A stretch of 64,000 bases of DNA from an uncultured Planctomycetota bacterium. Lineage in GTDB: Bacteria; Planctomycetota; Planctomycetia; Pirellulales; Thermoguttaceae. The stretch covers positions 38,891 through 102,890 of the forward strand of contig ONGM01000143.1 of the NCBI GenBank assembly GCA_900317365.1, given 5' to 3'. Made by a program: the position numbers and the translations under genes. This document shows positions 1 to 58,434 of the stretch, in pieces. The notes beneath the pieces were generated by a model, which had not been told where the DNA came from, searched no databases, and saw only the letters and a list, made by a program, of their open reading frames with translations. Each line of letters opens with the position of its first letter. Positions within the stretch are counted from its first letter, which is position 1.

Positions 1-1388
1 CGTCCAATGGGCCAGTCGCGTTTTTCGGAAAGCCAGTCGAGGTATCCCTTGGCATAGCGCGCAGGCTTGATCTCGACTTCGCCGTTCGTCACAGCGTCCA
101 TCGCCGTTTGCGCAAGCATTTCCATTTTGACGAACCATTGATCGTTCAAATATGGTTCGATCGGCGTCTTCGAACGATCGGAGGTCGCAATTTCAATCTG
201 ACGATCTTCGACTTTAACCAGATACCCCTGCTCTTCGAGGTCGGCTAATACGGCTTCGCGAACCTTTTTAATCAGGAGTCCTTGGTATTTGCCTGCGTTT
301 TCGTTGTACGTTCCGTCCGGATTCAGAAGATTAATCATCGGCAGGTTGCGACGCTTACCAACTTCGTAGTCGTTCGGATCGTGCGCGGGGGTAATCTTTA
401 CGCAACCGGTTCCTTTATCGGGTTTCGCCCATTCGTCGGCCACCAACGGAATCTCGCGATTTTGTAACGGAAGAATCAACATGCGACCGTCGCGAGCCAT
501 CTCGGAAAGTTGAACGAGGGAAGCCATGAGCGTCTTGCGACGTTCTTGCAAAGCGTCAAGTTCTTGTTGCGCTTCTTCACGTTCGCGTTCCGAACTCTTG
601 GCGATTTTCTCGCGAAGCTCCGCTTCGACCTTTTCGAACGCGCCTTTGGGATCCGGGTGAACCGCCACCGCGACGTCGCCGAGCATTGTTTCTGGACGCG
701 TCGTCGCCACAGTTACAAACTGCGGTTCGCCTTCCTTTGGATTAACGACGGGGTACTTGATGTACCAAAAGTGTCCGGCGGTTGTTTCGTGGAAGACTTC
801 GTCGTCGCTAACGGCGGTTTGGAGCTTGACGTCCCAGTTTACCAGACGTTTTCCTCGATAGATCAGACCGTCGCTGAAGAGTTTGAAGAAGAAAGCGCGA
901 ACGGCCTTGGCGCAGACGCTGTCAAGGGTGAAACGGAGGCGCCGCCAGTCGCAACTGCACCCCATCGCTTTCAACTGACTGAGAATGCGCGCTTGGTACT
1001 GATCTTTCCAATCCCAAATACGCTGGACAAGGGCCTCGCGTCCGAGATCCCATCGAGTTTTGCCTTCTTGTTCAAGGAGTCGTTTCTCAACGATCGCTTG
1101 CGTTGCGATACCAGCGTGGTCGACGCCGGGAATCCAAAGCGCTTCGTAGCCTTGCATACGCTTCATGCGAACGAGAGAATCCTGCAACGAATCGTTCAGA
1201 GCATGCCCCAGGTGCAACGCGCCGGTAACGTTCGGGGGAGGAATAACAACAGCGTACGGCTTTTTGTTTGGATTGACGTCGCTATTGAAAAAGCCGTTTT
1301 CTTCCCAGAACTTTGTGTATCGTTCTTGAGCGGATAAGTGATCGTACTGCTTAGGAAGGTTGTTGACCAACTGCTCTTGATGTGTCAT
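1..1388 (-). CDS. valS: Valyl-tRNA synthetase, N-terminal ~462 codons (3' end lies beyond window start)
   Basis: Own minus-strand translation from ATG at 1388: MTHQEQLVNNLPKQYDHLSAQERYTKFWEENGFF..KPYAVVIPPPNVTGALHLGHALNDSLQDSLVRMKRMQGYEALWIPGVDHAGIATQ. PPPNVTG-LH-GHA is the ValRS class-I HIGH region. It is absent from the ORF track because it runs off the edge. Confidence 0.85.
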   Translation of the reverse strand, partial: MTHQEQLVNNLPKQYDHLSAQERYTKFWEENGFFNSDVNPNKKPYAVVIPPPNVTGALHLGHALNDSLQDSLVRMKRMQGYEALWIPGVDHAGIATQAIVEKRLLEQEGKTRWDLGREALVQRIWDWKDQYQARILSQLKAMGCSCDWRRLRFTLDSVCAKAVRAFFFKLFSDGLIYRGKRLVNWDVKLQTAVSDDEVFHETTAGHFWYIKYPVVNPKEGEPQFVTVATTRPETMLGDVAVAVHPDPKGAFEKVEAELREKIAKSSEREREEAQQELDALQERRKTLMASLVQLSEMARDGRMLILPLQNREIPLVADEWAKPDKGTGCVKITPAHDPNDYEVGKRRNLPMINLLNPDGTYNENAGKYQGLLIKKVREAVLADLEEQGYLVKVEDRQIEIATSDRSKTPIEPYLNDQWFVKMEMLAQTAMDAVTNGEVEIKPARYAKGYLDWLSEKRDWPIG

Positions 1389-14721: not shown

Positions 14722-15945
14722 TTATTCTTCGTCGGCAAGCGCAATGTAGTGGTTCGCGATTTGTTGTGGTATTTTTTCGTTAATTAAGGAACTGCTTTTA
14801 GTTGCTTCGGCGGCTTCGCGAAGGGACAACGGCACGCGCTCTTCGACAATGCGTTCAGACTCTTGATTCGCGCCGGGCTCAATCGGAAGCGGCGGTTGTA
14901 CTTCGTTGTCGATCCCGTCGAGAGCCGACCAAATAAGCAACGCGTTCGCCAAATACGGATTGCAGGTAGAATCAGGAGTTCCGAGTTCTACCGTCTTTCG
15001 ATCGGCGCCGTCGTTTGAGAGACGAACGATCTGTTCGCAACTCTCGCGAGACCATGCGACTTTTTTGGGCACGTTGCTTTCTCTCAATCTTTGATACGAA
15101 TTCGCCGTCGGATTAAAAAAGAGCGTCATTGCGCAAATATTCTTCAAAAGACCGCCAATTGCGTAACGCCAATACTCGTTATTGTTACCGTTATTCTGTT
15201 GGATGCGAAATTTCAATCTCATCGCGTTTCCAGGTTGATTCGCCATTGGCAGAGGGGAAAAATCTGCGAAAAGTCCGTGCGCCGCAGCGATCGTATTAAC
15301 GACAAAGCGAAACGTTACCGCCGCGTCCGCCGCCGCGAGAGGATCTAGCGAACAAAAATCTATTTCATTCTGTCCCGGTCCAACCTCGTGGTGAGAACTC
15401 ACCGGTTTGACTCCCATTTGCTCGAGACTCAGACATATTTCTCGGCGAATGTTTTCACCTTTGTCGTCAGGTGACACGTCCATATATCCTGCGGAGTCGA
15501 AAGGTTCCCGCGTTGGTAAGCCGTTCTCGTCGCGACGGAAAAGATAGAATTCCATTTCGGAACTAATAGCAAAGGAAACGCCCTTAGATTCAGCTTCTTG
15601 AATCGCTCGAATTAAAACCGACCGCGAATCGGACTCAAAAGACGTTCCGTCGGGATAAGAGATCGAGCAAAACATTCGAATAACTCTTCCCCGTTCCGGA
15701 CGCCACGGTAAGACCGCGATCGTCGACGTGTCCGGACGGAGTAAAAGATCAGAGTTTGCGCGCGTTTCAAACCCGCGAATTGCCGAAGATTTAATTGGAA
15801 CGCCGCACTCGAACGCATTTCGCAATTCGTCCGACATGATCGACGTATTCTTCTTGCGACCAAAAACGTCCGTAAACGCGAGACGAATGAATTTAACGTC
15901 TTCTTCGGCTACGTACTGCTCAATTTCATTGATTGTATATTTCAT
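14722..15945 (-). CDS. Glutamine synthetase type-I-like protein, divergent and possibly non-catalytic
   Basis: The GS N-terminus (VKFIRLAFTDVFG), EMEFYLF, HHEVGPGQNEIDF and NPTANSYQRL are present. However, GSGMHxHxSL is replaced by GNAMRLKFRI and E-V-R-x-PD by E-L-G-T-PD. I prefer the start at ATG 15945 over TTG 15966. Confidence 0.8.
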   Translation of the reverse strand: MKYTINEIEQYVAEEDVKFIRLAFTDVFGRKKNTSIMSDELRNAFECGVPIKSSAIRGFETRANSDLLLRPDTSTIAVLPWRPERGRVIRMFCSISYPDGTSFESDSRSVLIRAIQEAESKGVSFAISSEMEFYLFRRDENGLPTREPFDSAGYMDVSPDDKGENIRREICLSLEQMGVKPVSSHHEVGPGQNEIDFCSLDPLAAADAAVTFRFVVNTIAAAHGLFADFSPLPMANQPGNAMRLKFRIQQNNGNNNEYWRYAIGGLLKNICAMTLFFNPTANSYQRLRESNVPKKVAWSRESCEQIVRLSNDGADRKTVELGTPDSTCNPYLANALLIWSALDGIDNEVQPPLPIEPGANQESERIVEERVPLSLREAAEATKSSSLINEKIPQQIANHYIALADEE

Positions 15946-15998
15946 TTGCGTCTTTCTATCTTCCAACGATCAATCATCTCGTGATCGTAGACAAAGCG

Positions 15999-16721
15999 TC
16001 AGTTCGCGACGTACATTTGCTTATAAGGATTAGCGACGTTCGGCGTGACCAGAGTAAAAGGTTCGTCAATAATCTTGGCAAAATCGTATCCAAACGTTTC
16101 ACAGAACTTTGCGATCAATGGACGAATTTCAGCCAAGTCTTCAGGATTTGCTATTTTTACCGTTGTTTGCTCGGGAAAAGAAACGGTTCCGAGCCCGCCT
16201 CGAACGAAAAGCTTTCCGCCGTGCATACCCGCGCATGGGAACGCTCCTAACGTTTCCTTGTCGTCCTTATGCAGACCAAGAGCTACGATCAGTCCACCCG
16301 CCTGATATTCTCCTAAAAAGCTACCGACACGTCCGCCGATGACGATCGCAGGCTTTTTCTCTTTGTATTCCTTCATATGGATGCCGACGCGATAGCCGGC
16401 GTTTCCTTGAACGAGTATTATTCCACCGCGCATCGCGTATCCGACCGCGTCGCCAACATTTCCATGAATCACAATCAAGCCGTCGTTCATCGTGTCTCCG
16501 ACCGCGTCTTGCGCGTTCCCTTCTACGATGATTTCCGAGCCGGCAAGGTAAGCGCCGAGCGCGTTGCCCGGAACGCCGGAAATCACAATTCGCTTGCCGC
16601 GAGATCCCGACGCGATGAAACGTTGTCCGAGACACTCGACGATTTTCAGTTCGTCGCCCGACTGATAAATCTCGTCGTTCAAAACGTCAAAACTCTTATT
16701 TTTGGCTTCTATCACTCTCAC
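15999..16721 (-). CDS. Glutamate synthase GXGXG-domain subunit (GltB C-terminal domain homolog)
   Basis: Repeated G-x-G beta-helix motifs (ISGVPGNALGAYLAG, VEGNAQDAVGDTMNDG, IHGNVGDAVGYAMRGG, VQGNAGYRVG). I prefer the start at GTG 16721, 5 nt after a GGAGG, over the track's TTG 16769. Confidence 0.8.
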   Translation of the reverse strand: MRVIEAKNKSFDVLNDEIYQSGDELKIVECLGQRFIASGSRGKRIVISGVPGNALGAYLAGSEIIVEGNAQDAVGDTMNDGLIVIHGNVGDAVGYAMRGGIILVQGNAGYRVGIHMKEYKEKKPAIVIGGRVGSFLGEYQAGGLIVALGLHKDDKETLGAFPCAGMHGGKLFVRGGLGTVSFPEQTTVKIANPEDLAEIRPLIAKFCETFGYDFAKIIDEPFTLVTPNVANPYKQMYVAN

Positions 16722-16790
16722 TTTTGCCTCCGAACGTCGATGAATGCACACCTGTTGCGTTGCGATCAAACCAAGGAACAGAACTGCTCG

Positions 16791-18296
16791 TTACTCGCCT
16801 GCGTGTTTAATTCCTAAAATGTCCAATTCCTTTTCGGTCATACCGATACCTCGCAACATCAACCGATTTCCTCGAAGCGTTTCTATGGAGTTAATTCCCA
16901 TGCCGCCCATGAGTTCTTTAATTTCATGGCGCCACGCGGACAGAAGATTTACAAGTCTTCTGGCGCCGACGTTAGGATCAAGTCTTTGAACAAGTTCCGG
17001 TCGTTGAGTGGCGATTCCCCAATTGCATCGACCCGTCTGACATGAACGACATAGTCGACATCCCAACGCGATCAACGCAGCCGTGGCGATATAACATGCG
17101 TCCGCGCCCAATGCAATCGCTTTAACGACGTCGGCCGCGTTACGAATACTCCCGCCGACAACGAGGGAAACGTTGTTTCGTATACCTTCCGCACGAAGTC
17201 GTTCGTCTACCGCAGCGAGCGCTAGTTCGACGGGAATTCCAACGTTGTCGCGAATACGCGTCGGCGCCGCGCCTGTTCCACCTCGAAAACCGTCGATCGC
17301 GATAATATCCGCGCCGCTACGCGCCACTCCGCTAGCGATCGCGGCAATGTTATGTACCGCTGCAACTTTAACGATGATCGGCTTAGTGCGCCTGGTCGCT
17401 TCTTTCAGAGAGTAGACCAATTGGCGGAGATCCTCGATCGAATACACGTCGTGATGCGGCGCCGGCGAAATGGCGTCGACTCCTTCTGGGATCATTCTCG
17501 TTCTCGACACGTCGCCTACAATTTTGGCGCCCGGTAAGTGCCCGCCGACTCCCGGCTTTGCTCCCTGCCCCATCTTGATCTCGATCGCCGCTCCTGCGTT
17601 GAGATAATCCTCGTGAACGCCAAAGCGCCCGGAAGCGACCTGCACGATCGTATTTGCGCCGTATCGATAGAAGTCCTCATGAAGACCGCCTTCACCGGTA
17701 TTATAGAAGACCCCGAGTTCCTGAGCCGCGCGCGCTAAACTTTCATGCGCGTTGTAACTGATCGAGCCGTAGCTCATCGCCGAAAACATGACCGGCGTCT
17801 CCAGGACAAGTTGCGGCTCCATCGACACGTCCAACGAGCCGTCCGAAGCCCGACGAATTTGCTCAGGCTTTTTGCCCAGAAAAACGCGCGTTTCCATTGG
17901 TTCGCGCAGTGGATCAATCGAGGGGTTGGTTACCTGCGACGCGTTGATCAGTATTCGATCCCAATAGACCGGAGTCGGTTTAGGCGCCCCCATCGACGAG
18001 AGCAAAACCGCGCCGGTATTCGATTGTTTGACGATCTCGCTGATCAAATCGGCGGACCAATTGGCATTCTCTTTGAACGAATTCTCATTCTTGACGATTT
18101 TGAGCGCGCGCGTCGGACACATCGCGACGCAACGCTGACAGTCGACGCATTTGCTTTCGTCGACGACAAGCTTTCGCGAGCGCTCGTCAATTCGATGAAC
18201 TCCATTGGCGCATTCGCGAACGCATAAATTACACGACACGCACCGTTCGAGATTTCTTACAACGTCAAACTCAGAGGAAAGGTACTGGACGGACAT
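16791..18296 (-). CDS. Glutamate synthase FMN/Fe-S subunit with N-terminal 2x[4Fe-4S] ferredoxin domain (archaeal type)
   Basis: CVSCNLCVRECA and CVDCQRCVAMCP, then GEGG, KMGQGAKPGVGGHLPG and the GGTGAAP FMN-domain motifs. Its ATG shares one base with the upstream stop (TAATG). Confidence 0.85.
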   Translation of the reverse strand: MSVQYLSSEFDVVRNLERCVSCNLCVRECANGVHRIDERSRKLVVDESKCVDCQRCVAMCPTRALKIVKNENSFKENANWSADLISEIVKQSNTGAVLLSSMGAPKPTPVYWDRILINASQVTNPSIDPLREPMETRVFLGKKPEQIRRASDGSLDVSMEPQLVLETPVMFSAMSYGSISYNAHESLARAAQELGVFYNTGEGGLHEDFYRYGANTIVQVASGRFGVHEDYLNAGAAIEIKMGQGAKPGVGGHLPGAKIVGDVSRTRMIPEGVDAISPAPHHDVYSIEDLRQLVYSLKEATRRTKPIIVKVAAVHNIAAIASGVARSGADIIAIDGFRGGTGAAPTRIRDNVGIPVELALAAVDERLRAEGIRNNVSLVVGGSIRNAADVVKAIALGADACYIATAALIALGCRLCRSCQTGRCNWGIATQRPELVQRLDPNVGARRLVNLLSAWRHEIKELMGGMGINSIETLRGNRLMLRGIGMTEKELDILGIKHAGE

Positions 18297-19387
18297 TAGA
18301 GCGCTCCTTTCTGAACCTTGAAAATCACCGGTTCGCCCCCTGCCGGAGCATAGACCTTTTCGGCGTTTGGCGCCATGATTCGTATCGCGGCTTCTTCGCT
18401 TGCGACGTAACGCATGTCGTCCTTTTCCGCAACAACCATCGAGCGCAACTTCAGTCGATCGTTGAGCGCCATAAGTCCCCCGTCAAATCCTAAAACAATC
18501 GAAAAAGGCCCCGTTAAAAGGAGACTCGGAAAAACCTTGCGAAGGTAAGAAAGCTGCTCCGATTCTTTTTGCGGGAGACTGTCGACAACGCTCCAAAAGG
18601 GAGCGGCTATTACGGCCGCAGTCTCTTCGAGCGTCAGCTTTTGTCGACGCAAGAGGTAATCGGCAATATACGCGATGACTTCCGTGTCCGTCTGAAGCGA
18701 ACATTTGTATCCAAACATCTCGATAAACCGTCGATTGGCGTCGTAAGAGGAAATCTCCCCGTTATGTACAACAGTGTAATCGAGGATTCCAAACGGATGG
18801 GCGCCTCCCCACCATCCAGGCGTATTCGTGGGGTAACGTCCGTGCGCCGTCCAAGCGTATCCTGCGTATTCTTCCAATCGATAAAACCGTCCAACGTCTT
18901 CCGGAAACCCGACCGCCTTAAAGGCGCCCATGTTTTTCCCGCTAGAAAAAACGTACGAACCTTGAAATTGCGAATTGATTTTTATGACGGTTCGCGCGAC
19001 AAATTCTTTTTCATCGAGCTGAAGACGAGAAAGAACAGACTGCAACGGCGCGACAAAATAGCGCCATATTATCGGTACGTCGGTAATTTCAGGGATCTTG
19101 CGAATTGGTATCGGTTCCGACTTGACGATCTCGTAGCCTTCTTTGAGGTACTTTTCGCACTCTTTTTGCGCGGCGACGTCGTCAAAAAAAACATGAAAGG
19201 CGTAGAAGTCTTGAAAATCCGGATAAATCCCATACCCTGCGAATCCGCCCCCGAGACCGTTGGATCTGTCGCGCATGGGAACCATACTCTTGGTAATGGC
19301 CTCGCCTGTTGTCGCCGCGCCCTTGAGCGAAATCATCGCTGAAATCGCGCATCCTGAAGGAATACGAACCTGTCCTTCCCTTTGCAT
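18296..19387 (-). CDS. Class-II (Ntn) glutamine amidotransferase subunit of split glutamate synthase
   Basis: 363 aa containing RIPSGCAIS..., HGRYPTNTPG and VHNGEISSY. The catalytic Cys is residue 13. Confidence 0.85.
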   Translation of the reverse strand: MQREGQVRIPSGCAISAMISLKGAATTGEAITKSMVPMRDRSNGLGGGFAGYGIYPDFQDFYAFHVFFDDVAAQKECEKYLKEGYEIVKSEPIPIRKIPEITDVPIIWRYFVAPLQSVLSRLQLDEKEFVARTVIKINSQFQGSYVFSSGKNMGAFKAVGFPEDVGRFYRLEEYAGYAWTAHGRYPTNTPGWWGGAHPFGILDYTVVHNGEISSYDANRRFIEMFGYKCSLQTDTEVIAYIADYLLRRQKLTLEETAAVIAAPFWSVVDSLPQKESEQLSYLRKVFPSLLLTGPFSIVLGFDGGLMALNDRLKLRSMVVAEKDDMRYVASEEAAIRIMAPNAEKVYAPAGGEPVIFKVQKGAL

Positions 19388-19413: not shown

Positions 19414-19467
19414 AAAAAAAAAAGCGCCCACTCGCGGAAGTACTCTACGTGCTTCGCGAATGAACGC
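19414..19467 (-). terminator. Leader (attenuator) terminator of the glutamate-synthase operon
   Basis: Minus-strand RNA reads GCGUUCAUUCGCGAAG-cacguagagua-CUUCCGCGAGUGGGCGC followed by U10. That gives 16 bp including 3 GU pairs and one bulged C. It ends 26 nt before the ATG at 19387. Confidence 0.7.
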
Positions 19468-19477
19468 CTTTGCTCAT
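19460..19477 (-). promoter_or_regulatory. Hexaloop hairpin (candidate ANTAR-binding antiterminator element)
   Basis: AUGAGC-AAAGGC-GUUCAU is a 6-bp stem with a 6-nt loop carrying A at position 1 and G at position 4. Its 3' arm is part of the terminator's 5' arm, so the two structures are mutually exclusive. Confidence 0.5.
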
Positions 19478-19574
19478 CGGTGAAACATTTTAGCGCCTCT
19501 TTCGAAAACGTCAAGGAAAAAGAATGAAAAAATTTAAGAAAAGGTAATCTTTTAACAGACGTTTCAACAGATTT

Positions 19575-19604: not shown

Positions 19605-19690
19605 AAACAAGTAGCATTCTTGCAAGTATTAAACTTATGACAACATATTTTGACTTCTTTTCCTAAACTTATAAAATCGCATATTCGAGT

Positions 19691-19753
19691 CAAAGGCGAG
19701 AAAAACCGATTCGATTTCCCTCGCCTTTGCGAGAAAAACGGCGACTCCGTTTC
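19691..19753 (-). terminator. Nested hairpins downstream of asnB (probable terminator region)
   Basis: On the minus strand, AAACGG-agucg-CCGUUUUU lies directly after the asnB stop. It is followed by CAAAGGCGAG-19 nt-CUCGCCUUUG (10 bp), with the alternative CUCGC-AAAG-GCGAG. Confidence 0.4.
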
Positions 19754-19759
19754 AGCCCC

Positions 19760-21340
19760 TTAAATTCCGCTCGCTCCGTAGTTCGAAAGAACGCGCGCGG
19801 AAGGATCGTTGACGTCGCAACCTTTCCAGCTCTTATTCGGCATCCAGAAGTCGACGATCATTTGACTTTGTTCAGGATAATACTTCTCAAAGATCTCACG
19901 ATACAACAACGATTCCTTCGTGAATGGAGTCGCATGCGCGAACTTGCCGCGTTTCGAATCAAATTCGGCGTCGGAATAGCGACTTTCGGCAAACTCTTTC
20001 AAGTAATCGACCATGGAATGACCGACGGCGTCGGAAAACGCCGCTTTTTCCCGATACAAAATCTCAGGAGGAAGGTATTCGCCGTCTTCAAAAGCCTTTC
20101 GCAACAAGTATTTTCCTTTGTTGTAGACGTTCATTTTCTTGTGCGGATCAATTGACAAGACGTATTTAACGAAATCAAGATCGCCGAACGGTACGCGCGC
20201 TTCGAGCGAGTTCACTGAAATACAGCGGTCGGCGCGCAAGACGTCGTACATATGAATCTCGCGAATACGTTTCTCGGACTCGAGTTGGAACTCTTCGGCA
20301 GAAGGTGCGAAGTCCGTGTACTTGTAGCCAAAAAGCTCGTCGGAAATTTCTCCCGTGAGCAGAACGCGAATATCGGTGTTTTCGTGAATCCATTTGCAAA
20401 GAAGATACATTCCCATGCTGGCGCGAATTGTCGTTATATCGAACGTGCCGAGCATTCTCACGACAAAATCGAGAGAGTCGAGAACTTCCTCTTTCGTCAT
20501 GTACACCTCGGTATGAACGCTTCCAATATAGTCGGCGACCGTTTTTGCGTATTTTAAATCGATGGCGTCTTCGCTCATGCCAATGCCAAAGGTTTTTATC
20601 GGCGTTCTCAATTCCTTTTGCGCTATCGCGCAGACAAGGGACGAGTCGAGACCGCCGGAAAGAAGAAACCCGATTTTCGAATCGGATTCCAAACGTTTTT
20701 TGACGCCTGCGATCAACTTTGATTTGATCTTGGAAAAAGTCGTAGGAAGATCGTCTCTCGAATACGTCTCGACTTTAGCGATATCGCAATAGCAAAAGAA
20801 GCGACCGTCTTTATAGTAATGCCCCGGCGGAAAAGGGAGCGTTTTTTGACACAGTGAAACGAGGTTTTTCGGTTCGCTGGCAAAAACGATGGCGCCCGAC
20901 TCCGTATACCCGTAGTACAGCGGTCGAATCCCGACGGGATCGCGCGCCGCTATCAGGGTCTGCGCTTCCGCGTCGTATAATATCAAGGCGAACTCGGCGT
21001 CAAGTTCCTTAAACATCTCGACGCCTTTTTCTCGATATAGAGGGAGCAGTATTTCGCAATCGGATCCGCTTTTAAAGCGATACGTTTTGGACAGTTCACG
21101 CTTGAACTTTTGGAATCCATAGATTTCTCCGTTACATACGAGCCAATTATCACCGAGCTGGAAAGGCTGCATACCTTCCGGAGTCAAGCCCATAATTGAA
21201 AGGCGATGAAACCCGAAGTATCCGTTCCCGACTTTTACAATGCGAGAATCGTCAGGTCCCCTCGAAACCGTTTCAGAAAATCCTTTTTGAAAATCCGCAA
21301 GCGAAACGCTCGCGCTATCGCAACCCATAATAGAACACAT
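19760..21340 (-). CDS. asnB: Asparagine synthase (glutamine-hydrolysing)
   Basis: The start is set at ATG 21340 so the protein begins MCSIMGC (Ntn Cys2), with a GAAAGGA RBS. FLLSGGLDSS is the PP-loop. The track ORF start at 21412 is too long. Confidence 0.9.
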   Translation of the reverse strand: MCSIMGCDSASVSLADFQKGFSETVSRGPDDSRIVKVGNGYFGFHRLSIMGLTPEGMQPFQLGDNWLVCNGEIYGFQKFKRELSKTYRFKSGSDCEILLPLYREKGVEMFKELDAEFALILYDAEAQTLIAARDPVGIRPLYYGYTESGAIVFASEPKNLVSLCQKTLPFPPGHYYKDGRFFCYCDIAKVETYSRDDLPTTFSKIKSKLIAGVKKRLESDSKIGFLLSGGLDSSLVCAIAQKELRTPIKTFGIGMSEDAIDLKYAKTVADYIGSVHTEVYMTKEEVLDSLDFVVRMLGTFDITTIRASMGMYLLCKWIHENTDIRVLLTGEISDELFGYKYTDFAPSAEEFQLESEKRIREIHMYDVLRADRCISVNSLEARVPFGDLDFVKYVLSIDPHKKMNVYNKGKYLLRKAFEDGEYLPPEILYREKAAFSDAVGHSMVDYLKEFAESRYSDAEFDSKRGKFAHATPFTKESLLYREIFEKYYPEQSQMIVDFWMPNKSWKGCDVNDPSARVLSNYGASGI

Positions 21341-21390
21341 TTTGCATTCCTTTCTCGATGATCCTTTGATAATCTTTTGTGTAATGGCAT

Positions 21391-21436
21391 AAAACCCGCC
21401 CGCAGACGACAAGCCCTGGAAATCGTCGCGGGCGGG
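21391..21436 (-). terminator. GC-rich hairpin plus UUUU between amt-PII and asnB (terminator or partial terminator)
   Basis: Minus strand: CCCGCCCGCGACGA-13 nt-UCGUC(U)GCGGGCGGG followed by UUUUA. Confidence 0.5.
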
Positions 21437-21490: not shown

Positions 21491-23236
21491 TTACGCTTCC
21501 TCGTCTTGCAACGCGTCGTAACCTTCCTCGCCTGTCCTCACTTTGATCGCGTTTTCAACGTCGTAGACGAAGATCTTGCCGTCTCCGATTCTGCCGGTGT
21601 ACAATGTCTTTTTAACCGTGTCGATTAGATCGCTCACAGGTATCTTGCTAATAACGACGTCAACTTGAACCTTTGGTAAAAGATTCGTTTCAACTTGTAC
21701 CCCGCGGTAATACTCCGGGCGTCCGCGTTGAACGCCGCAGCCTAAAACGTGCGAGACGGTCATTCCGGTAACGCCGAGCGCCGACAAAGCCTCTTTCAAC
21801 GCGTCGAACCTTGATTCTTTGCATATAATCTCGACCTTCGTGAGTTTCCGCGTTCCCTGACTAGTAGTCGTTGCAAAGATTGGTTCACGTTTAACAGGGA
21901 TAGCCTCGGCAACGGGAACGTCGCCTTGAACTACCTGAACGCCGCCGATCGGCGCAAAATCGGAGAACCGATTGACTGCCGGTGCAAAATCAGGATACGC
22001 CGACGGAAGTCCGTGTTCAGTCTTGTCCAAACCGAGAATCTCATCTTCAGCGTTGACGCGCATTCCGACTGTAAGATCAATCAGCTTGAAGGCAATACAA
22101 AGGACGACGAGGGCGTAGGCGGCAACGCTAGCAATGCCGAGGCATTGAATCTTTAACGCTGAGAGGTCGCCGGTGTAAAAAAGACCAGAAATTCCAGCCG
22201 GCGCGTCGGGATTAGCAAAAAGTCCAACCGCAAACGTTCCCCAAACGCCGCACGCTAGATGAACGCCAACGGCGCCGACCGGATCGTCAATGTGAAATCT
22301 CAGATCGAGCTTTTCGACGATGAAGACGACGAGAAAACCTGCGACAATTCCGATAATGATCGAACCGATCGCGTCAACCGCGTCGCAACCTGCCGTAATT
22401 CCAACCAAGCCGGCGAGAGACGCGTTTAGGCACATCGAAACGTCGGGTTTGCCGTTTTTCACCCAGGTATAAACCAGCGCGGCGCACGTAGCGAACGCAG
22501 GAGCTAGGGTTGTTGTGAGAAAGATTGCGGAGAGTTCGGACGCAGACGTTGCCGCCGCGCCGTTAAAGCCGTACCATCCTAGCCACAAAATGAACACTCC
22601 CAACGCGCCAAGCGTGATTGAATGTCCAGGAATCGCGTTGATCTTTGAAACCTTTCCGCGATCGTCGCGACGATATTTCCCAATTCGCGCTCCGAGCAGG
22701 ATCGCGCCGATCAGAGCGGCGAATCCGCCGACCATGTGAATCGCGCAAGAACCGGCGTAATCGTGAAAACCTCGTTGCGCAAGCCAACCGCCGCCCCAAA
22801 TCCAATGCGCCTCGATAGGATAAACGAGGAGCGAAAGAATGATCGAATACAAACAGTAGGCTGAGAATTTCGTTCGTTCAGCCATGGCGCCGGACGCGAT
22901 CGTTGCGGTCGTTGCACAGAAGACAAGGTTGAAGACGAACGTCGAAGCCGGAGTGAACTCGTCGGCGGAAGGATTCGTTATGAACAATTTGAAATTGGTG
23001 AAAATCTCGAAATTTGGTCTTCCAATCAGCCCGAAAAAAGAATCGGCGCCAATGAGAAGAGAGTATCCAAGCGTGGAAAACGCCACCGCGCCTAGACAAA
23101 AATCCATGAGATTCTTCATGACGATATTACCGGCGTTCTTCGAACGAGTAAATCCGGCTTCAACCATCGCGAATCCCGCTTGCATCCAAAAGACTAACGC
23201 CGCGCCAATTAAAAACCAAAACTCAACGGTAATCAC
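21491..23236 (-). CDS. Ammonium transporter (Amt) fused to a C-terminal P-II (GlnK/GlnB) domain
   Basis: The Amt core has FWMQAGFAMVEAGF, AIHMVGGFAAL and VHLACGVWG. The last ~118 aa (21494..21847) are KVEIICKESRFDALKEALSALGVTGMTVSHVLGCGVQRGRPEYYRG...GDGKIFVYDVENAIKVRTGEEG, which is P-II. The start is probably GTG 23236, 7 nt after an AGGAG that overlaps the glnN stop; the track's TTG 23242 is too close to the RBS. Confidence 0.9.
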   Translation of the reverse strand: MITVEFWFLIGAALVFWMQAGFAMVEAGFTRSKNAGNIVMKNLMDFCLGAVAFSTLGYSLLIGADSFFGLIGRPNFEIFTNFKLFITNPSADEFTPASTFVFNLVFCATTATIASGAMAERTKFSAYCLYSIILSLLVYPIEAHWIWGGGWLAQRGFHDYAGSCAIHMVGGFAALIGAILLGARIGKYRRDDRGKVSKINAIPGHSITLGALGVFILWLGWYGFNGAAATSASELSAIFLTTTLAPAFATCAALVYTWVKNGKPDVSMCLNASLAGLVGITAGCDAVDAIGSIIIGIVAGFLVVFIVEKLDLRFHIDDPVGAVGVHLACGVWGTFAVGLFANPDAPAGISGLFYTGDLSALKIQCLGIASVAAYALVVLCIAFKLIDLTVGMRVNAEDEILGLDKTEHGLPSAYPDFAPAVNRFSDFAPIGGVQVVQGDVPVAEAIPVKREPIFATTTSQGTRKLTKVEIICKESRFDALKEALSALGVTGMTVSHVLGCGVQRGRPEYYRGVQVETNLLPKVQVDVVISKIPVSDLIDTVKKTLYTGRIGDGKIFVYDVENAIKVRTGEEGYDALQDEEA

Positions 23237-23247
23237 GACCAATCTCC

Positions 23248-25344
23248 TTATCGAACGCTAAACAGGATCTTTTCATAGGTCGGGAACGGCCAATATTTTT
23301 CAGCGACGAGTGTTTCCGCTTCGTCGCACACTAGGCGCAACTCCGTCATTCGCGGCAAGATCTCGTCGCGAATCATAACGGACGCCTCGGTAACGTCGCC
23401 AATCGTTTTGAGTTGTACGAGCGATACGTCTAGTCTCTGGGTCGCGGCGTCAATTTCGTCAACGATACGTGAAAGCTTTGCGAGGAGGTTCTTTTCATAC
23501 CGTCCTGATACTTCCGGCGCAATGGCGTTTTTGGCGACGGCCGTTTCCGCAATGTCTTTAACATAGGATTCGACGGCCGGCAAAATATCCTTGCGCGCCA
23601 TATCCACCATCGTTAAGCCTTCGATCGTTACCGTCTTGCAGTAATTGTCCAACGTGATTTCGTATCGGGATCTAATCTCAGAAACAGAATAAATCCCGAG
23701 AGAGACGAGCAAATCGACGTTCTTTTTATTGAGAAGGGCCGGCAGAGCGTCCGGAGTCGTGCGGAGATTGAGAAGCCCGCGCTCTTCCGTCGCCTCTTTA
23801 ATCCATGCGTCGTCGTATCCGTTGCCGTTGAATACGACTCGACGATGGTCTTTGAACGTCTTTTTAATCATCTCGTGAAGCGCCGTCTCAAAATCGGTTG
23901 CGTTTTCCAAACGATCGGCGTAAATCTTGAGGGACTCGGCGACTGCGGCATTCAGCATGATATTGGCGCACGCAATGCTGTTTGAAGAGCCGAGCATACG
24001 GAATTCAAACTTATTGCCGGTAAAGGCAAAAGGAGACGTCCTGTTGCGATCCGTCGAATCGCGATTGAAATTCGGCAATACGTTAGCGCCCAGTTTCATA
24101 ACCGTCTTTTCCGCGCCGACGTAAGGAGCGTCGTTTACGATCGCGTCCATAATGGCGGTCAGTTCGTCCCCGAGGAAAATCGAAATCACCGCAGGAGGGG
24201 CTTCGTTCGCGCCAAGTCGATGGTCGTTGCCCGCCGTCGCTACCGATAGTCGAAGAAGATCTTGATAGTCGTCCACCGCCTTAATTACGGCGCAGAGGAA
24301 AAGGAGGAACTGCGCGTTCTCGTACGGCGTTTCACCAGGAGTCAAAAGGTTGACGCCTGTGTCCGTAGCCATCGACCAGTTGTTGTGCTTACCGGAACCG
24401 TTGACGCCTGCAAAAGGCTTTTCATGCAACAAGCAGACGAGACCGTGCCGAGAGGCAACCTTCTGCATGATCTCCATCGTTAATTGGTTGTGATCCGTGG
24501 CAACGTTCGTCGTCGTATATATCGGAGCGAGCTCGTGCTGAGCCGGCGCCACTTCGTTGTGTTCCGTTTTAGCGAGGATCCCAAGTTTCCACAACTCTTC
24601 GTTGAGGTCCGCCATATAGGCGGCGACGCGCGGCTTAATGACGCCGAAGTAATGATCCGACATTTCCTGCCCTTTCGGCGGTTTTGCGCCGAAGAGGGTT
24701 CGACCGGTCATGATCAAGTCTTTGCGTTCAAGAAAAACCTTTTCGTCGATCAGAAAATACTCTTGTTCCGGACCAACCGAAGTGCGAACGCATTTGACGT
24801 CCGTTTTGCCAAAGAGTTTTAAGATCCGCAACGCCTGAACGTTGAGCGCTTCCATCGATCGAAGGAGTGGCGTCTTTTTGTCCAACGCTTCGCCGCCGAA
24901 GGAACAGAACGCCGTCGGAATGCACAGCGTTTTTCCCTTAATGAACGCGTACGACGTCGGATCCCACGCCGTGTATCCCCGCGCTTCAAAGGTCGCGCGC
25001 AAACCGCCAGACGGAAAAGACGACGCGTCCGGTTCGCCTTTAATGAGCTCCTTACCGGAAAACTCCATAATGACGCGTCCGTCAGGGGACGGCGTAATAA
25101 AGCTGTCGTGTTTCTCGGCAGTTACGCCGGTAAGGGGCTGGAACCAGTGTGTAAAATGCGTCGCGCCGCGAGCAACCGCCCAATCCTTCATTGCAGCCGC
25201 CACCGCGTCGGCGACCCCGCGATCAAGGGGAGCGCCTTCGTCAATCGTTTTTTTCAGCGAGCGATAAACGTCGTCGGAAAGGGACGCCTTCATGACGCGG
25301 TCGTCGAACACCATAGAACCGAAATACTCGGGAACAGAACTCAT
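23248..25344 (-). CDS. glnN: Glutamine synthetase type III
   Basis: 698 aa. The N-terminus [20 protein letters not shown], plus [11 protein letters not shown] and GSGKHNNWS, are characteristic of GSIII. Confidence 0.9.
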
Positions 25345-25364
25345 CTCATTACCCCTTCATGCAC

Positions 25365-25407
25365 AAAAAAAGGCAACGACGTTTTGGAAAACCAAGACGC
25401 CGTTGCC
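25365..25407 (-). terminator. glnN leader terminator 2
   Basis: GGCAACGGCGU-c-UUGG-uuuu-CCAA-a-ACGUCGUUGCC followed by U7. It has 15 bp and ends about 20 nt before the ATG at 25344. Confidence 0.65.
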
Positions 25408-25410
25408 TCG
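25393..25410 (-). promoter_or_regulatory. Hexaloop hairpin H2 overlapping terminator 2
   Basis: CGAGGC-AACGGC-GUCUUG has a 6-bp stem (2 GU pairs) and a loop with A1/G4. It shares nucleotides with the 5' arm of terminator 2. Confidence 0.45.
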
Positions 25411-25420
25411 TTTTATCGAT

Positions 25421-25469
25421 AAACAAAAAAGGGGTCTCAGAAAAGAATTTTCATCTTTTCCGAGACCCC
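25421..25469 (-). terminator. glnN leader terminator 1
   Basis: GGGGUCUCGGAAAAG-9 nt-CUUUUCUGAGACCCC forms 15 bp and is followed by UUUUUUGUUU. Confidence 0.7.
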
Positions 25470-25478
25470 TTTGCCTCA
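25461..25478 (-). promoter_or_regulatory. Hexaloop hairpin H1 overlapping terminator 1
   Basis: UGAGGC-AAAGGG-GUCUCG has a loop with A1/G4. Its loop and 3' arm form the 5' arm of terminator 1. Confidence 0.45.
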
Positions 25479-25489
25479 TTCGATCGCTG

Positions 25490-25517
25490 ATTCTATACCA
25501 TGTCGCCGAATAGTCAA
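25490..25517 (-). promoter_or_regulatory. Sigma-70-like promoter of glnN operon (TTGACT-16-TAGAAT)
   Basis: -35 at 25512..25517 and -10 at 25490..25495 on the minus strand. Confidence 0.5.
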
Positions 25518-25566
25518 TAGGTTTTTGAAAAAATTTTTGAAATTCTCGCTCGAGATATTCTCAAAC

Positions 25567-25872
25567 CTACTCCAGCCAGAACGCTTCTTCCAACGATTCT
25601 GGAACGTCGTTTTCGCCGAGGTAAATCAGGGGGCGCATATAATCTTCCCACTTCTGCCGAACCTCGCTTGCTTCAAGCGTAGGAAGCAAACGGTCGGGGT
25701 CGTCCACTTCGTAGTACGCGAAAATGTCGGTTCCGGAAAGCCAAATCGAATAGTTTTTGTATCCAGCCTCTTTGAGAAGAGCCTTCATTTCCGGCCAAAT
25801 CTCGCGATGTCGTCTGATATACTCCTCGCGCGTCGAGGGATCCTTTAAAATCCATCTTTGTGCAACTCTCAT
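25567..25872 (-). CDS. rhaM: L-rhamnose mutarotase
   Basis: MRVAQRWILKDPSTREEYIRRHREIWPEMKALLKEAGYKNYSIWLSGTDIFAYYEV fits the RhaM/DUF718 family. I prefer ATG 25872 with a GGAGA RBS over the track's TTG 25887. Confidence 0.8.
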   Translation of the reverse strand: MRVAQRWILKDPSTREEYIRRHREIWPEMKALLKEAGYKNYSIWLSGTDIFAYYEVDDPDRLLPTLEASEVRQKWEDYMRPLIYLGENDVPESLEEAFWLE

Positions 25873-25942
25873 AGCTAGCTTCTCCAATTTGATTCTGTGT
25901 GTAAAGGTTAGCGTTCGCGAGACGACGTCTCTCCGAATTCGT

Positions 25943-28900
25943 TTATTTGCGATCGCGGCGGATTTGATAGTCTCCCCAGAGCGGAACGTTTAGATCAATC
26001 CAACATTTGATCGCCTGCTCTTCTTCGGGGCTTAAATTGACGCCGTCGTGTTGCGCCTCTTTAAGAACGTCGAATAGTCGACTCTTGGCGACGCCAAAGG
26101 TATACGGCGCGGCCTTCGTCGTTTTTCCGCCGCCCCATGTGTAGTCAAAGTAATGAATCGTTCCGCTTTGAATTAACGAGCGATATGAGTTCGGGATCTT
26201 GTTCGCGTCACGGTCGCCGGTCAAATCGATAATTCGTGAAGCTAGCGCCGCCGTATCGGCGTTATGACACTCGACGCAATGTTTGTTCAGAATCGGTTGA
26301 ACGATTCGTTCATACCAAAACGGGCCGGCTCCCCACGGCGGCGCGACCAGCCGTTGCGGATCGCCTGCCGACGCCTTCGTAAGTCCGCCTTCCGGGGCGC
26401 TCAATCGATTTTCATGACATCCTACGCACGAACGCCGTTCGCCAGGTCGGAGTTGGACGACGGAGCGCATGCGTTGAATCTCATTGTAATTCTCGTCCAA
26501 CAGTTCGAAAAAGAGAACTTTTTCCGCCGGAACGAGAAAATCGACGGAGCCGTCTTCTTCAATTTCTACCGTGCCGAGAACGCCTTTCGCAACGTACGAG
26601 GGCCACCCGTAGGCGCCTTGTAGAACGTCGACGGGCGAAGCGTAGTACTCCATGAAGGGTTCGTGATCGGCTTGATAGGTTCCGTCGTCGAGTTGAATGA
26701 GATTCGTCGGAAGCTCTTGGCACACGCGCAAGTACTTTGCGGCGCCCGGTTTGACCTGACCCTCTAGCCCTCGATAGACGTTGGCGACGGAAAAATAGCC
26801 AAGTTTCTGATCAGCAAGGGTCGGATCCGCCGAAGCGCCTGTGACCGGCGGCGTCTCGCGCGGCGCGAAAGGTTGGGGACAAATCGTGTCGATTTCGGGA
26901 TCAATCGTCAGTAACTCTCGATTGCCAAAGCGATCGATTAAGTAAACTCCAAATCGATCAAAATGTGCGTGCGAGACGAGAATAATATCCCTCGAAATAG
27001 GAGTCGGTTCGCGAAACGTTTCCGAGCGCGCCCAGTAGCCGGGCCAAGGGACCTCCGGCGTAATCGACCGAATAGCCGACGGATCGTGCGGTCCTTTCGA
27101 CAGATCGATCAGGGCAACCGGTCCGTTGAGGTCGCCAAAGTGTGAAATCATAACGCAACAGACTTCATTGGAATCGGGAACGCGTTTACCGTTCGCGTAA
27201 CCTTGCGGCAAGTTAATCGTGTTTCCAAATGTCAGCTCAGGCGACGTCCCGTCCGCGCGAATAGTCCACAACGTGTGCCCGTAATCCGCTCCTTTATCGA
27301 CGTATTCCGAACGCGTCCACATAATTCTCCCGTCGTCGCACACCGACGGCGCAAACTCGGAAAGATTGGCGTAGGAAAGAGGTTCCAAGCCCGTTCCGTC
27401 CATATCCATTCGATGAAGAACAAAAGCTTGCGGACGCCAACAGATGAATTTTTTCTTACATCTCGTCGATACGAACGCAAGACCTCCGTCGGGAAGTTCC
27501 GTAGGCCAAAAATCATGGAACGGTCCAGGCGGGCTTATGCGTCGCTCGACGCCGGAAGTCAGATCGAGTTCGAAGATGCGATAGTACTCGTTTTGACTGA
27601 TTCGTTTTGCATAGTAAATCTTTTGTGCATCAAAGCTTTGCGACGGATTTCTAATAACGCCGTCCCCTGCCTCGACAAGATTTCGAGCGGTTGCTTCTTC
27701 CGGGGCAAGCCGACCGTCTTTAAACGGTATGTCGATCATAACGACGGCGCCGCCGGGATTCCAGGTTGAATCAAAGAGGTCGCTATAGTTGTGCGACGGC
27801 CAAAATGGATTTCGCTTGTTGGCGAGAATGTGAGAAAGGGATTCTAATTCCGGATTGGAGAGGAAGAGATCGCGTTTTAAGAGTCTCACGCGTAGGAAAA
27901 GATTACGCGTCGCCAGTAGACTTTCACGGCGGCGCTGAGAATCTTCGTCGCGCGCTGAGTTTTTCAATGAGTCAAGGAAAAGTTGCCAACACGCAAGAGC
28001 TTCAGTCTCGACAGAAGAAAGCTCCGGACGCTTTTGAAGGTCGTTGAAATACTCAATCAGAGCTTCTGCTTCGCCTTGGTCTCCCAATTTAGCCAGAATT
28101 GCTTTTGAATCGACATATCTCGGATTAACGCTCCCGTTCCACCGAACCTGTTTTGCGAAGTCACGTTCGTCAAGCTCGGTCGAACGACTTTCGGAACGCT
28201 CGAGCATATCTTTGAGTTGACATAACGGACGATACGACGGGTTGTATTTCAATCCAACAACGCGAAATTTATCCCCAGACTTTTGATCAACGATCGAACA
28301 GACAAGTTCAGGACCGGCGTAGCCCCACTCTCCCTGAACCTTTGTAATCGTAGTTTTTCCCGGCTGAACGGAGACGTCTTCCGCATTGATCGAGAAAACG
28401 CGATCCTCGTCGGAAGTTCCGACAAGACGTATTTCGAAATCCGCTGAAAAATCATTCGGAGGAGCGAGTTCAAGCGCAAAAGGCGCAGGCTTAAAATGGA
28501 CAGGTCTCCCGCCTGGCATGACGCGTCGCGCGCCTATGCCTAACCCTACGTAAAATCCACGTTCTTTTACGTCAGGCAGAAATTGTAAGGGAATTTTCAC
28601 CTGAAGAGTGTTGGCGTCAGGATTAAAGCAACCGTCGAGTTCCGTTTCGGAGCCGGCGTCCCGTTCGTCGAGCGGATCGATCTGTTTCCAAAGAACTTTC
28701 GTTTCAACCTTTCCCTCACAAACGTCGTCGCGAAGCGTAATGAATGCGCGATCAGGTATGTTTTCAGTCCCGATCATCGCGATATTTTCGGAGAGAAACC
28801 GATCGCCTGAAATTCTAAGCAAAAGCGCGTCTGGCGTAAAAACTGCGCTCACGGTTTGCTCCAGAAGCCCCCCCAAGAAGAAGGAGCCGCCGTTAAAGAC

Positions 28901-29818: not shown

Positions 29819-30271
29819 AACCGGTTCATCGTCCTTTCTGCATCTTGGAAAACGCACTCTCTCGCTGGCAAACTACGCGCGCAATTCAAATCTGATATTC
29901 GGCGTTCATGGCGTCATTGTAATCGGTCGCGCTAGGAATTTAAAGCATAGAGAAAAGAATTTCTCTATTTGTGGTCGGAGTCTTCACGATATCGGGTTCG
30001 CGCCATGTGCACGACGTGGAGGTTCTCGGGACGCTCTACGAAGAATTCGCGAGCGTGGCCTTCAATTTCAAGCCATTCTACTCTGAATCGCCCGTTTTTC
30101 ATTCTTAGCAAAACCTTTGAAAAGTTCACAAAGCTAAGCGACAGCCAAGACCGCTACAAACAGGAAAGATCGTCTAAGATAGAGTCGTCTAGAATGAGAA
30201 AGATGTGCCGAAATGATCATAGGCGACTCGAAAGCAACCAAAGCAAATTGCATTGCAAGGTCGAAAGCGAC

Positions 30272-58336: not shown

Positions 58337-58379
58337 GTCGATATATCTCCGAATTGCCGAGTTAATTTCAAAACTTTTT

Positions 58380-58434
58380 TATCGATAACAAAATATCGAT
58401 AAAAGCATTTTATACTATTCTCACTATTTGTCAA
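58380..58434 (-). promoter_or_regulatory. Promoter TTGACA-16-TAAAAT followed by tandem palindromes TTATCGATA-N5-TTATCGATA
   Basis: -35 at 58429..58434 and -10 at 58407..58412. The two palindromes (58394..58402 and 58380..58388) cover the predicted TSS and early leader of the AAE transporter gene. Confidence 0.4.

Follow-up and report, generated by a model that had tools for sequence, protein, structure and literature searches.

Two predicted single-hairpin attenuators in series ahead of a type III glutamine synthetase gene and a candidate ANTAR protein to read them

How could an operon for nitrogen assimilation be expressed if its leader carries two terminators in series, each entangled with an ANTAR-type hairpin of its own? 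This question is raised by the leader of glnN, the gene of a type III glutamine synthetase (GSIII), in a 64,000-nucleotide (nt) stretch of contig ONGM01000143.1 (assembly GCA_900317365.1, positions 38,891 to 102,890), the whole of which is called the window here. In the published model of ANTAR-mediated antitermination, two hexaloop hairpins, P1 and P2, lie adjacent to each other and control one terminator. An earlier note on the glnN leader had contrasted this arrangement with that of the window, where each of two hairpins, about 68 nt apart, is tied to a terminator of its own. On the evidence given below, we consider it likely that glnN and the amt/PII and asnB genes behind it are controlled after transcription initiation by two independent antitermination units in series, both of which would be read by a NitR/AmiR-like ANTAR protein encoded in the window (14691-14008, minus strand).

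The two hairpin-terminator units of the glnN leader

All leader elements described in the earlier note were found, on the minus strand, and are given below in the order of transcription.

25490..25517, minus strand: sigma-70-type promoter, TTGACT (25517-25512), 16 nt, TAGAAT (25495-25490)
25462..25477, minus strand: hexaloop hairpin H1, GAGGC-AAAGGG-GUCUC (A1, G4), at about +7 of the transcript
25425..25472, minus strand: Terminator 1, stem 25472-25428 with a 7-nt loop, U6 at 25430-25425
25412..25423, minus strand: linker between the units, with the perfect palindrome TTTATCGATAAA
25394..25409, minus strand: hexaloop hairpin H2, GAGGC-AACGGC-GUCUU (A1, G4), 68 nt past H1
25365..25409, minus strand: Terminator 2, stem 25409-25370 with a UUUU loop, U7 at 25371-25365

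The proposed TTGACT-16-TAGAAT promoter (25517-25490) matches the consensus at 10 of 12 positions and is the sole promoter-like site within 24800-26200. The stem of H1 begins 12 nt past the end of its -10 box. A Shine-Dalgarno-like AAGGGG (25357-25352) stands ahead of the glnN start codon. The two GAGGC-AAnGGn-GUCU hairpins were located at 25477-25462 (H1, with a folding energy of -6.0 kcal/mol) and 25409-25394 (H2), and both loops carry the A1 and G4 of the canonical hexaloop. A search of the 64 kb with the pattern GAGGCAANGGNGTCT gave two perfect matches, both in the glnN leader.

Each hairpin is followed by a stem and a U-tract of an intrinsic terminator. The U6 and U7 tracts were as previously described, whereas the stems, taken to be 15 bp each in the earlier note, are longer. 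Terminator 1 has 19 pairs (8 of them G-C) in the minimum free energy (MFE) structure, with -29 kcal/mol and z = -7.2, and Terminator 2 has 17 pairs plus one C/A mismatch, with -26.8 kcal/mol and z = -6.3. A simple terminator scan caught Terminator 1 only, Terminator 2 being missed because of its C/A mismatch. The MFE of the entire leader is -67.6 kcal/mol as compared with -35.6 ± 3.8 kcal/mol for shuffled sequences (z = -8.4), none of 200 shuffles being equally stable.

The hairpins had been described as preceding and overlapping the terminators. The overlap was confirmed, but "overlapping" understates it, as the hairpins lie almost wholly inside the 5' arms of the terminators: the 5' arm of Terminator 1 takes in the loop and the 3' arm of H1, and that of Terminator 2 contains H2 in full. 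Hairpin and terminator are thus mutually exclusive in both units, and their overlap is more extensive than in the published sites, where it concerns the 3' arm of P2 alone. H1 and H2 do not form an adjacent P1/P2 pair with a constrained short linker, a complete terminator separating the two. From the end of Terminator 1 to H2 there are 15 nt, which leaves no room for a second promoter between the two units of the window; such a promoter was ruled out here. Two relatives (L073 and L010) have longer gaps between their units, with weak promoter-like strings, so that a second promoter may be present there.

The same leader was recovered from six independent metagenome assemblies that encode the same GlnN protein (L081-L086), five copies being identical and that of L085 differing by one base after the -10 box. 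The leader is therefore not an assembly artefact. Being from the same species, these six copies are uninformative for covariation.

Separately, the palindrome TTATCGATAA was noted twice in the window (25413-25422 and 58379-58388) against 0.11 copies expected. The first copy is that of the linker which joins the two units. The second lies about 45 nt upstream of a gene for an Asp-Al_Ex family permease (58336-57101, minus strand), directly past a promoter-like site and with a further ATCGAT close by. The palindrome may serve a DNA-binding regulator as its operator, or it may recur by chance.

Conservation of the unit in relatives

The comparison of orthologous glnN leaders, suggested in the earlier note as a check, was made with 80 glnN loci from species-representative genomes and 80 from metagenomes, of which 154 had at least 250 nt of upstream sequence and were used. 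Their GlnN proteins are 62-83% identical to that of the window, and the hosts are mostly Clostridia/Oscillospirales metagenome-assembled genomes from gut and rumen, as are the closest relatives (77-83% identity). Many relatives share the gene set of the window, often with the operon of glutamate synthase (glt), glutamine synthetase (GS)-like and ANTAR genes divergent from glnN.

A covariance model of the hairpin, R1, was built from 98 examples and scored H1 with 24.9 bits (E = 3e-5) and H2 with 23.9 bits (E = 7e-5). In the relatives, 120 of 205 R1 matches lie in sense orientation at most 350 nt upstream of glnN, a region that makes up about 2% of the search space. The remaining matches are mostly mirror images of terminators or leaders of glt, amt, asnB and carA genes. 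The hexaloop hairpin is present in 95 of the 154 glnN leaders, as one unit in 71, two in 23 and three in a single case (L113), so that 24 leaders carry hairpins in series. The remaining 59 have none. Non-conservation of the structures in relatives, which the earlier note had named as refuting its reading, was thus not observed. The distance between serial hairpins ranges from 51 to 179 nt and is most often 66-71 nt, as in the window (68 nt).

That the hairpin itself is maintained is evident from sites picked by the core CAAnGGnG only. In glnN leaders, stem positions 2-5 of these sites are paired in 93, 91, 87 and 67% of cases, compared with 42-46% in controls elsewhere. Changes on both sides of the stem were observed at four of six pairs, in 83 cells against 34 ± 4 in shuffles, and sliding the pairing partners by 1-3 columns lowered pairing from 86% to 36-51%. 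All 98 seed hairpins have A1 and G4, for which they had been selected; A2 is kept in more than 90% of them, though it was not selected for. The loops of the window (AAAGGG, AACGGC and, in a third unit described below, AAAGGC) compare with a family consensus of AAnGGC.

The link between each hairpin and its own terminator also holds beyond the window. A terminator-like hairpin (median of 18 pairs) that uses the 3' arm of the hexaloop hairpin and ends at a U-rich tail accompanies 115 of 122 units, and every unit has its own in 22 of 25 multi-unit leaders, that of the window included. The 5' arm of the terminator starts at or before the 5' arm of the hairpin in 76 of the 115 units and within the loop in 38, from which it follows that the whole hairpin is embedded and not its 3' arm alone.

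The position of the unit is conserved as well. A TTGACn-16..18-TAnnnT promoter lies just ahead of the first hairpin in 81 of the 95 leaders, and in 76 of these 81 the distance from the end of the -10 box to the stem is 7-14 nt (mode 10-12 nt; 12 nt in the window and 10 nt in the glt leader of this genome). At this distance, the hairpin is practically the first element of the RNA, starting a few nucleotides from its 5' end, and a P1 could not be accommodated ahead of it. An upstream P1 hairpin was ruled out, there being neither space past the promoter nor an excess of A1/G4 hexaloops upstream: a further A1/G4 hexaloop in the 45 nt upstream was found in 3 of 71 single-unit leaders, against a background of 11.6%. 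A second ANTAR-like loop at the apex of the terminator was likewise rejected, occurring in only one of 115 terminators (that of L006). The contrast with the model of adjacent hairpins that was drawn in the earlier note therefore stands. The narrow range of the distance between -10 box and hairpin in relatives amounts to a positional constraint.

The preferred spacing has a bearing on the question of whether H1 and H2 could be the P1 and P2 of one cooperative site, with an ANTAR dimer recruited at H1 and handed over to H2, and Terminator 1 serving as a structured linker. Thirteen of the 23 two-unit relative leaders have a spacing of 66-71 nt, and a weak 5-bp AUCGA/UCGAU helix can bring both hairpins together when H1 and H2 are forced to fold. 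Such a reading would also accord with the model derived for EutV, in which a recruitment hairpin is followed by an antitermination hairpin (Walshe 2022; PMC8934654). Nevertheless, we regard it as unlikely. The spacing varies over 51-179 nt, whereas a P1-P2 linker longer by 20 nt abolishes antitermination by EutV (Walshe 2022; PMC8934654); its mode equals the length of a terminator plus a short linker; the full terminator of H1 would be superfluous for a hairpin that only recruits; and a single unit is used in 71 leaders and in the glt leader of this genome. Single units predominate and one of them heads the glt operon here, which implies that the unit works alone. Together with the variable spacing and the private terminators, this argues for independent units rather than for a distant P1-P2 pair.

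A different role for Terminator 1 is suggested by rhaM (25887-25567), which lies upstream of glnN in the same direction, with no terminator between its stop codon and the glnN promoter. Terminator 1 might end rhaM transcription or insulate glnN from it, so that only H2 and Terminator 2 would regulate glnN and the likeness of H1 would be a by-product of duplication. We hold this to be very unlikely, given that H1 is preceded by the promoter at the usual distance (12 nt; 7-14 nt in 76 of 81 relatives), which makes H1 the standard 5'-terminal unit and H2 the extra one. In addition, the R1 score of H1 is as good as that of H2, and the genes ahead of tandem units vary widely among relatives, a divergent glt operon being frequent. 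Insulation from rhaM and regulation of glnN are not mutually exclusive roles.

Further variants were observed in individual loci. Tandem units lie upstream of amt in four relatives (L014, L016, L018 and L019, at about 2240-2540), where CAGC-AAGGGN-GCUG is followed by AUACAC-AAAGGG-GUGUAU ahead of an amt-glnN operon. The three hairpin-terminator units of L113 (1795-1922) are 51 and 53 nt apart and have weak U-tracts. Antisense to glnN and about 460 nt into the gene, GAAGC-AACGGN-GUUUU followed by a U-run was found in L001 (about 3404-3428) and in L045 and L066 (6465-6488). This stretch reaches 15 bits on the hairpin model in several loci and has no counterpart match in the window; it is probably the by-product of a conserved peptide. 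Ten hairpin-less glnN leaders were compared with Rfam, and no known cis-regulator was found near glnN.

The nitrogen cluster, its ANTAR protein and the proposed mechanism

On the sense strand of the 64-kb window, R1 recognises three sites only. All are located in 5' leaders within the nitrogen cluster, which includes the ANTAR gene. A fourth match, on the plus strand at 25366-25389, was rejected as the mirror image of the 3' arm of Terminator 2. The genes of this cluster and the third unit are as follows.

23248..25344, minus strand: glnN, type III glutamine synthetase, 698 aa, ATG at 25344
21491..23242, minus strand: ammonium transporter fused to P-II (amt/PII)
19760..21412, minus strand: asparagine synthase (glutamine-hydrolysing), asnB
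19414..19514, minus strand: third promoter-hairpin-terminator unit, heading the glutamate-synthase operon, same design as the H1 and H2 units
15999..19387, minus strand: split glutamate synthase with GATase_2, Glu_synthase and GXGXG subunits
14722..15966, minus strand: GS-like protein, 414 aa
14008..14691, minus strand: ANTAR RNA-binding regulator, 227 aa (PF03861, E = 2e-15)

The genes behind the leader are glnN, then amt/PII, then asnB, in agreement with the GSIII gene and the Amt-PII transporter named in the earlier note. A gap of 373 nt separates asnB from the glutamate-synthase operon, and the ANTAR gene is followed by carA, carB and an NAD synthase gene, all on the minus strand. Just past the asnB stop codon (about 19690-19735, minus strand), a 10-bp hairpin of CAAAGGCGAG, 19 nt and CTCGCCTTTG was noted, which is devoid of a U-tract. 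It shares the GCAAAGGCG core with the ANTAR-type hairpins in a different register; a degenerate unit is one possibility, an RNA-stability element another. On the other side of the cluster, upstream of rhaM (25943-29857, minus strand), lies the gene of a 1304-aa protein that combines a hydrazine-synthase-alpha middle domain (PF18582) with an F5/8 type C domain. Its neighbours are rhamnosidase and GH2/GH39 genes, and it is probably a carbohydrate-active surface protein.

In the third unit, a TTGACG-16-TAAAAT promoter (19514-19487) is followed after 8-10 nt by the hairpin H3, GAUGAGC-AAAGGC-GUUCAUU (19478-19459), and by a long terminator that extends to 19424 and ends in a U10 tract (19423-19414). 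R1 scores H3 with 14.9 bits, and orthologous AUGAGC-AAAGGC-GUUCAU hairpins are present in at least seven relatives (L001, L003, L009, L010, L021, L052 and L053). Since the operon headed by this unit contains the ANTAR gene, the regulator would be autoregulated.

The ANTAR protein is thus encoded near its presumed targets. Its ANTAR domain is intact, and the protein aligns with Rv1626, AmiR and EutV over the coiled coil and the ANTAR domain. At the position of the tyrosine by which EutV stacks on G4 it has a histidine, as does AmiR (EAH motif). The receiver is degenerate: VIVVN-A replaces the acceptor aspartate and VSAS replaces the DD/DE pocket, so that both the acceptor and the acidic pocket of a phosphorylatable receiver are missing. 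Among 35 sequences (those of 34 relatives and of the window), the acceptor column contains 18 asparagines and three aspartates. Judged by its sequence, the protein is of the pseudo-receiver type, like AmiR, and this applies family-wide. With regard to the minimal ANTAR target, redefined as a single hexaloop of which an EutV dimer contacts one at a time (Walshe 2022; PMC8934654), the RNA of the window fits and the ANTAR domain is intact; binding is predicted.

In relatives, the ANTAR gene always adjoins the gene of the GS-like protein, which suggests a sensor-partner arrangement like that of AmiC-AmiR and makes the GS-like protein a candidate sensor partner. With 272 bits against an NCBI GlnA equivalog cut-off of 429 bits, this protein falls well short of the GlnA assignment. 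The hairpin and the ANTAR gene are associated across loci: where the fetched flanks include an ANTAR gene, the glnN leader has the hairpin in 32 of 34 loci, and where they do not, in 63 of 120 (odds ratio 14.5, p = 2.7e-6).

This association, and the loop signature, also bear on whether the hairpins could be read by something else, be it a different RNA-binding protein, a small ligand or the GS-like protein, or whether they are part of plain, unregulated tandem terminators. Binding by the ANTAR protein is a prediction made with 64 kb of the genome covered, and the element corresponds to no Rfam family; the whole window gave no match at gathering score, and the leader gave sub-threshold chance matches only at E values of up to 10. 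Against this, the loops combine the A1/G4 ANTAR signature, for which the seeds were selected, with the unselected but conserved A2, and their association with ANTAR genes is strong. A ligand pocket would not fit into a hairpin of 16 nt, and unregulated tandem stops behind the promoter would silence an essential assimilation operon. Attenuation by a leader peptide was considered for a 40-codon open reading frame (MRQRGLGKDENSF..., 25357-25479, minus strand) that starts at H1, some 5 nt into the transcript, and extends across both terminators. This was dismissed, as the frame has no Shine-Dalgarno sequence and is not conserved, its counterpart in L009 reaching a stop after six codons; the frame is probably not a leader peptide. 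Taken together, another reader, or none, is quite improbable.

For the ANTAR-read units that we favour, the following course of events is proposed. By default, the terminators would fold, and transcription would end with an RNA of about 60 nt at U6 or of about 120 nt at U7. Under nitrogen limitation, an active ANTAR dimer would capture the hairpin within the window of about 12-25 nt of synthesis during which the hairpin is the most stable fold. With the hairpin held, only an apical stub of the terminator, away from the U-tract, could form, and RNA polymerase would read through. Both units would have to be antiterminated on one transcript. That nitrogen limitation would be the inducing condition, and that the GS-like protein would control the ANTAR protein, is proposed by analogy with NitR, AmiC-AmiR and a Clostridium thermocellum gene cluster (see below).

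In an equilibrium folding series, the MFE structure was H1 for transcripts of 23 to about 47 nt and H2 for transcripts of 92 to about 104 nt; beyond these lengths the respective terminator prevailed. Compared with the respective terminator, holding the hairpin costs about 18 kcal/mol for H1 and about 21 kcal/mol for H2. When H1 is held, a residual 8-bp A/U-rich stub remains, which ends 11 nt short of the U-tract. As both terminators are on one transcript and the linker has no space for a promoter, readthrough would need two successes. Basal leakage would then approximate the product of the two leak rates, and induction would respond more steeply to active regulator. The steep, multiplicative response envisaged for the tandem units in the earlier note would be expected on this reasoning.

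Several points weigh against the proposed mechanism. Binding, termination and readthrough are predictions for this organism and for this class of hairpin. Antitermination by EutV needs both hairpins at a fixed spacing (PMC3369931, PMC8934654), which means that a single-hairpin unit must achieve antitermination in another way; binding might be tighter, the kinetic window longer, or the 5' end might contribute. The peak of spacings at 66-71 nt could hint at cooperation between the units and not at independence. In the relatives, 59 of 154 glnN leaders have no hairpin, so that the element is not obligatory for the control of glnN, and some of the U-tracts accepted by the terminator caller are weak. 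Finally, the part of the genome covered is 64 kb, and other ANTAR or RNA-binding proteins may be encoded beyond the window.

A broader proposal, to which we give about an even chance, is that nitrogen operons of the Clostridia type possess a distinct class of ANTAR attenuator. It would consist of a single hexaloop at the extreme 5' end of the RNA, lying wholly in the 5' arm of a terminator and lacking a recruitment hairpin; it would be read by a non-phosphorylatable ANTAR protein that is set by an adjacent GS-like sensor, and two or three such units in a row on glnN and amt leaders would serve to adjust leakiness and steepness.

If this is true, P1 would be dispensable for co-transcriptional antitermination by ANTAR proteins, against the expectation derived from EutV, and the generality of the dual-hairpin requirement would be challenged. 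In the literature, ANTAR antitermination is defined by the dual-hairpin RNA, and searches based on that model would miss single-hairpin units. The 95 of 154 glnN leaders, together with the glt, amt, asnB and carA leaders, would offer a natural test of the need for a recruitment hairpin. They would also provide a regulon consensus for the GS-like/ANTAR pair of gut and rumen Clostridia (promoter, about 10 nt, RGC-AAnGGC-GYY, long terminator), in which GSIII, Amt and glutamate synthase (GOGAT) set ammonia assimilation. Leaders with one, two and three units are a ready series for determining the effects of serial attenuators on leakiness and on the steepness of the response.

Comparison with known systems

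Both the regulatory theme and stacked attenuators as such are established. In Firmicutes, the genes of glutamine synthetase, glutamate synthase, Amt and P-II were predicted to be under ANTAR control, and Table S2 of the same study lists paired, terminator-overlapping ANTAR matches, 99-251 nt apart, for the same genes in Desulfotomaculum (Ramesh 2012; PMC3369931). In principle, then, ANTAR attenuators in series have a precedent. Like the leader of the window, the Desulfotomaculum leaders have two terminator-overlapping elements ahead of nitrogen genes (amt-PII, nif, urea). Unlike it, each element is a match of 44-60 nt to the dual-hairpin model, where here there is one hairpin per unit, and the study does not treat the pairs as tandem attenuators. 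A search of the open literature, from which Stutz 2007 was absent, gave nothing on tandem or single-hairpin ANTAR attenuators of glnN beyond Ramesh 2012 and Walshe 2022. The P2-only, 5'-terminal, terminator-embedded ANTAR unit and its repeated use thus appear to be undescribed.

With the EutV/EutW system of the Enterococcus faecalis eut cluster, the units share the A1/G4 hexaloop, the competition of hairpin and intrinsic terminator, the ANTAR protein and the presence of several attenuators along a gene cluster (PMC3369931, PMC8934654). The eut sites differ in having adjacent P1 and P2 hairpins at strict spacing, only the 3' arm of P2 being part of the terminator, whereas the glnN units have one hairpin per terminator, embedded in its 5' arm and located at the 5' end of the transcript. 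The regulators differ, too, in that EutV has a phosphorylatable receiver and the ANTAR protein of the window a pseudo-receiver.

Functional parallels come from Clostridium. In C. saccharobutylicum, NitR induces the GS and GOGAT genes by antitermination (PMC6316151), and in C. thermocellum an ANTAR/GS-I/GOGAT cluster (Clo1313_2030-2036) is co-expressed with the GSIII gene Clo1313_2303 (PMC4676874). The glnA-nitR-gltAB locus and the C. thermocellum cluster resemble the window in the neighbourhood of GS-type, ANTAR and GOGAT genes, in the nitrogen theme and in the proposed antitermination. The open papers on these Clostridium systems, which again do not include Stutz 2007, describe neither the architecture of the NitR RNA target nor a tandem leader or a single-hairpin unit.

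AmiR-AmiC of Pseudomonas aeruginosa is similar on the protein side, with a pseudo-receiver, a coiled coil, an ANTAR domain and a histidine at the loop-stacking position, and with control presumably by a partner protein and not by phosphorylation. The partner of AmiR is an amide sensor resembling periplasmic binding proteins, whereas here it would be the GS-like protein; the amiE leader is filed as dual-hairpin, in contrast to the single-hairpin units of this study. Control by a GS-like sensor, as proposed, would parallel either AmiC-AmiR or the feedback-inhibited GS that acts on TnrA/GlnR in Bacillus.

As for the arrangement in series, tandem TPP and glycine riboswitches and the thrZ T-boxes likewise comprise two complete attenuators one after the other, which results in lower leakage and a more switch-like response. 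These elements sense their ligand or tRNA directly, whereas in the glnN leader a protein would read both units.

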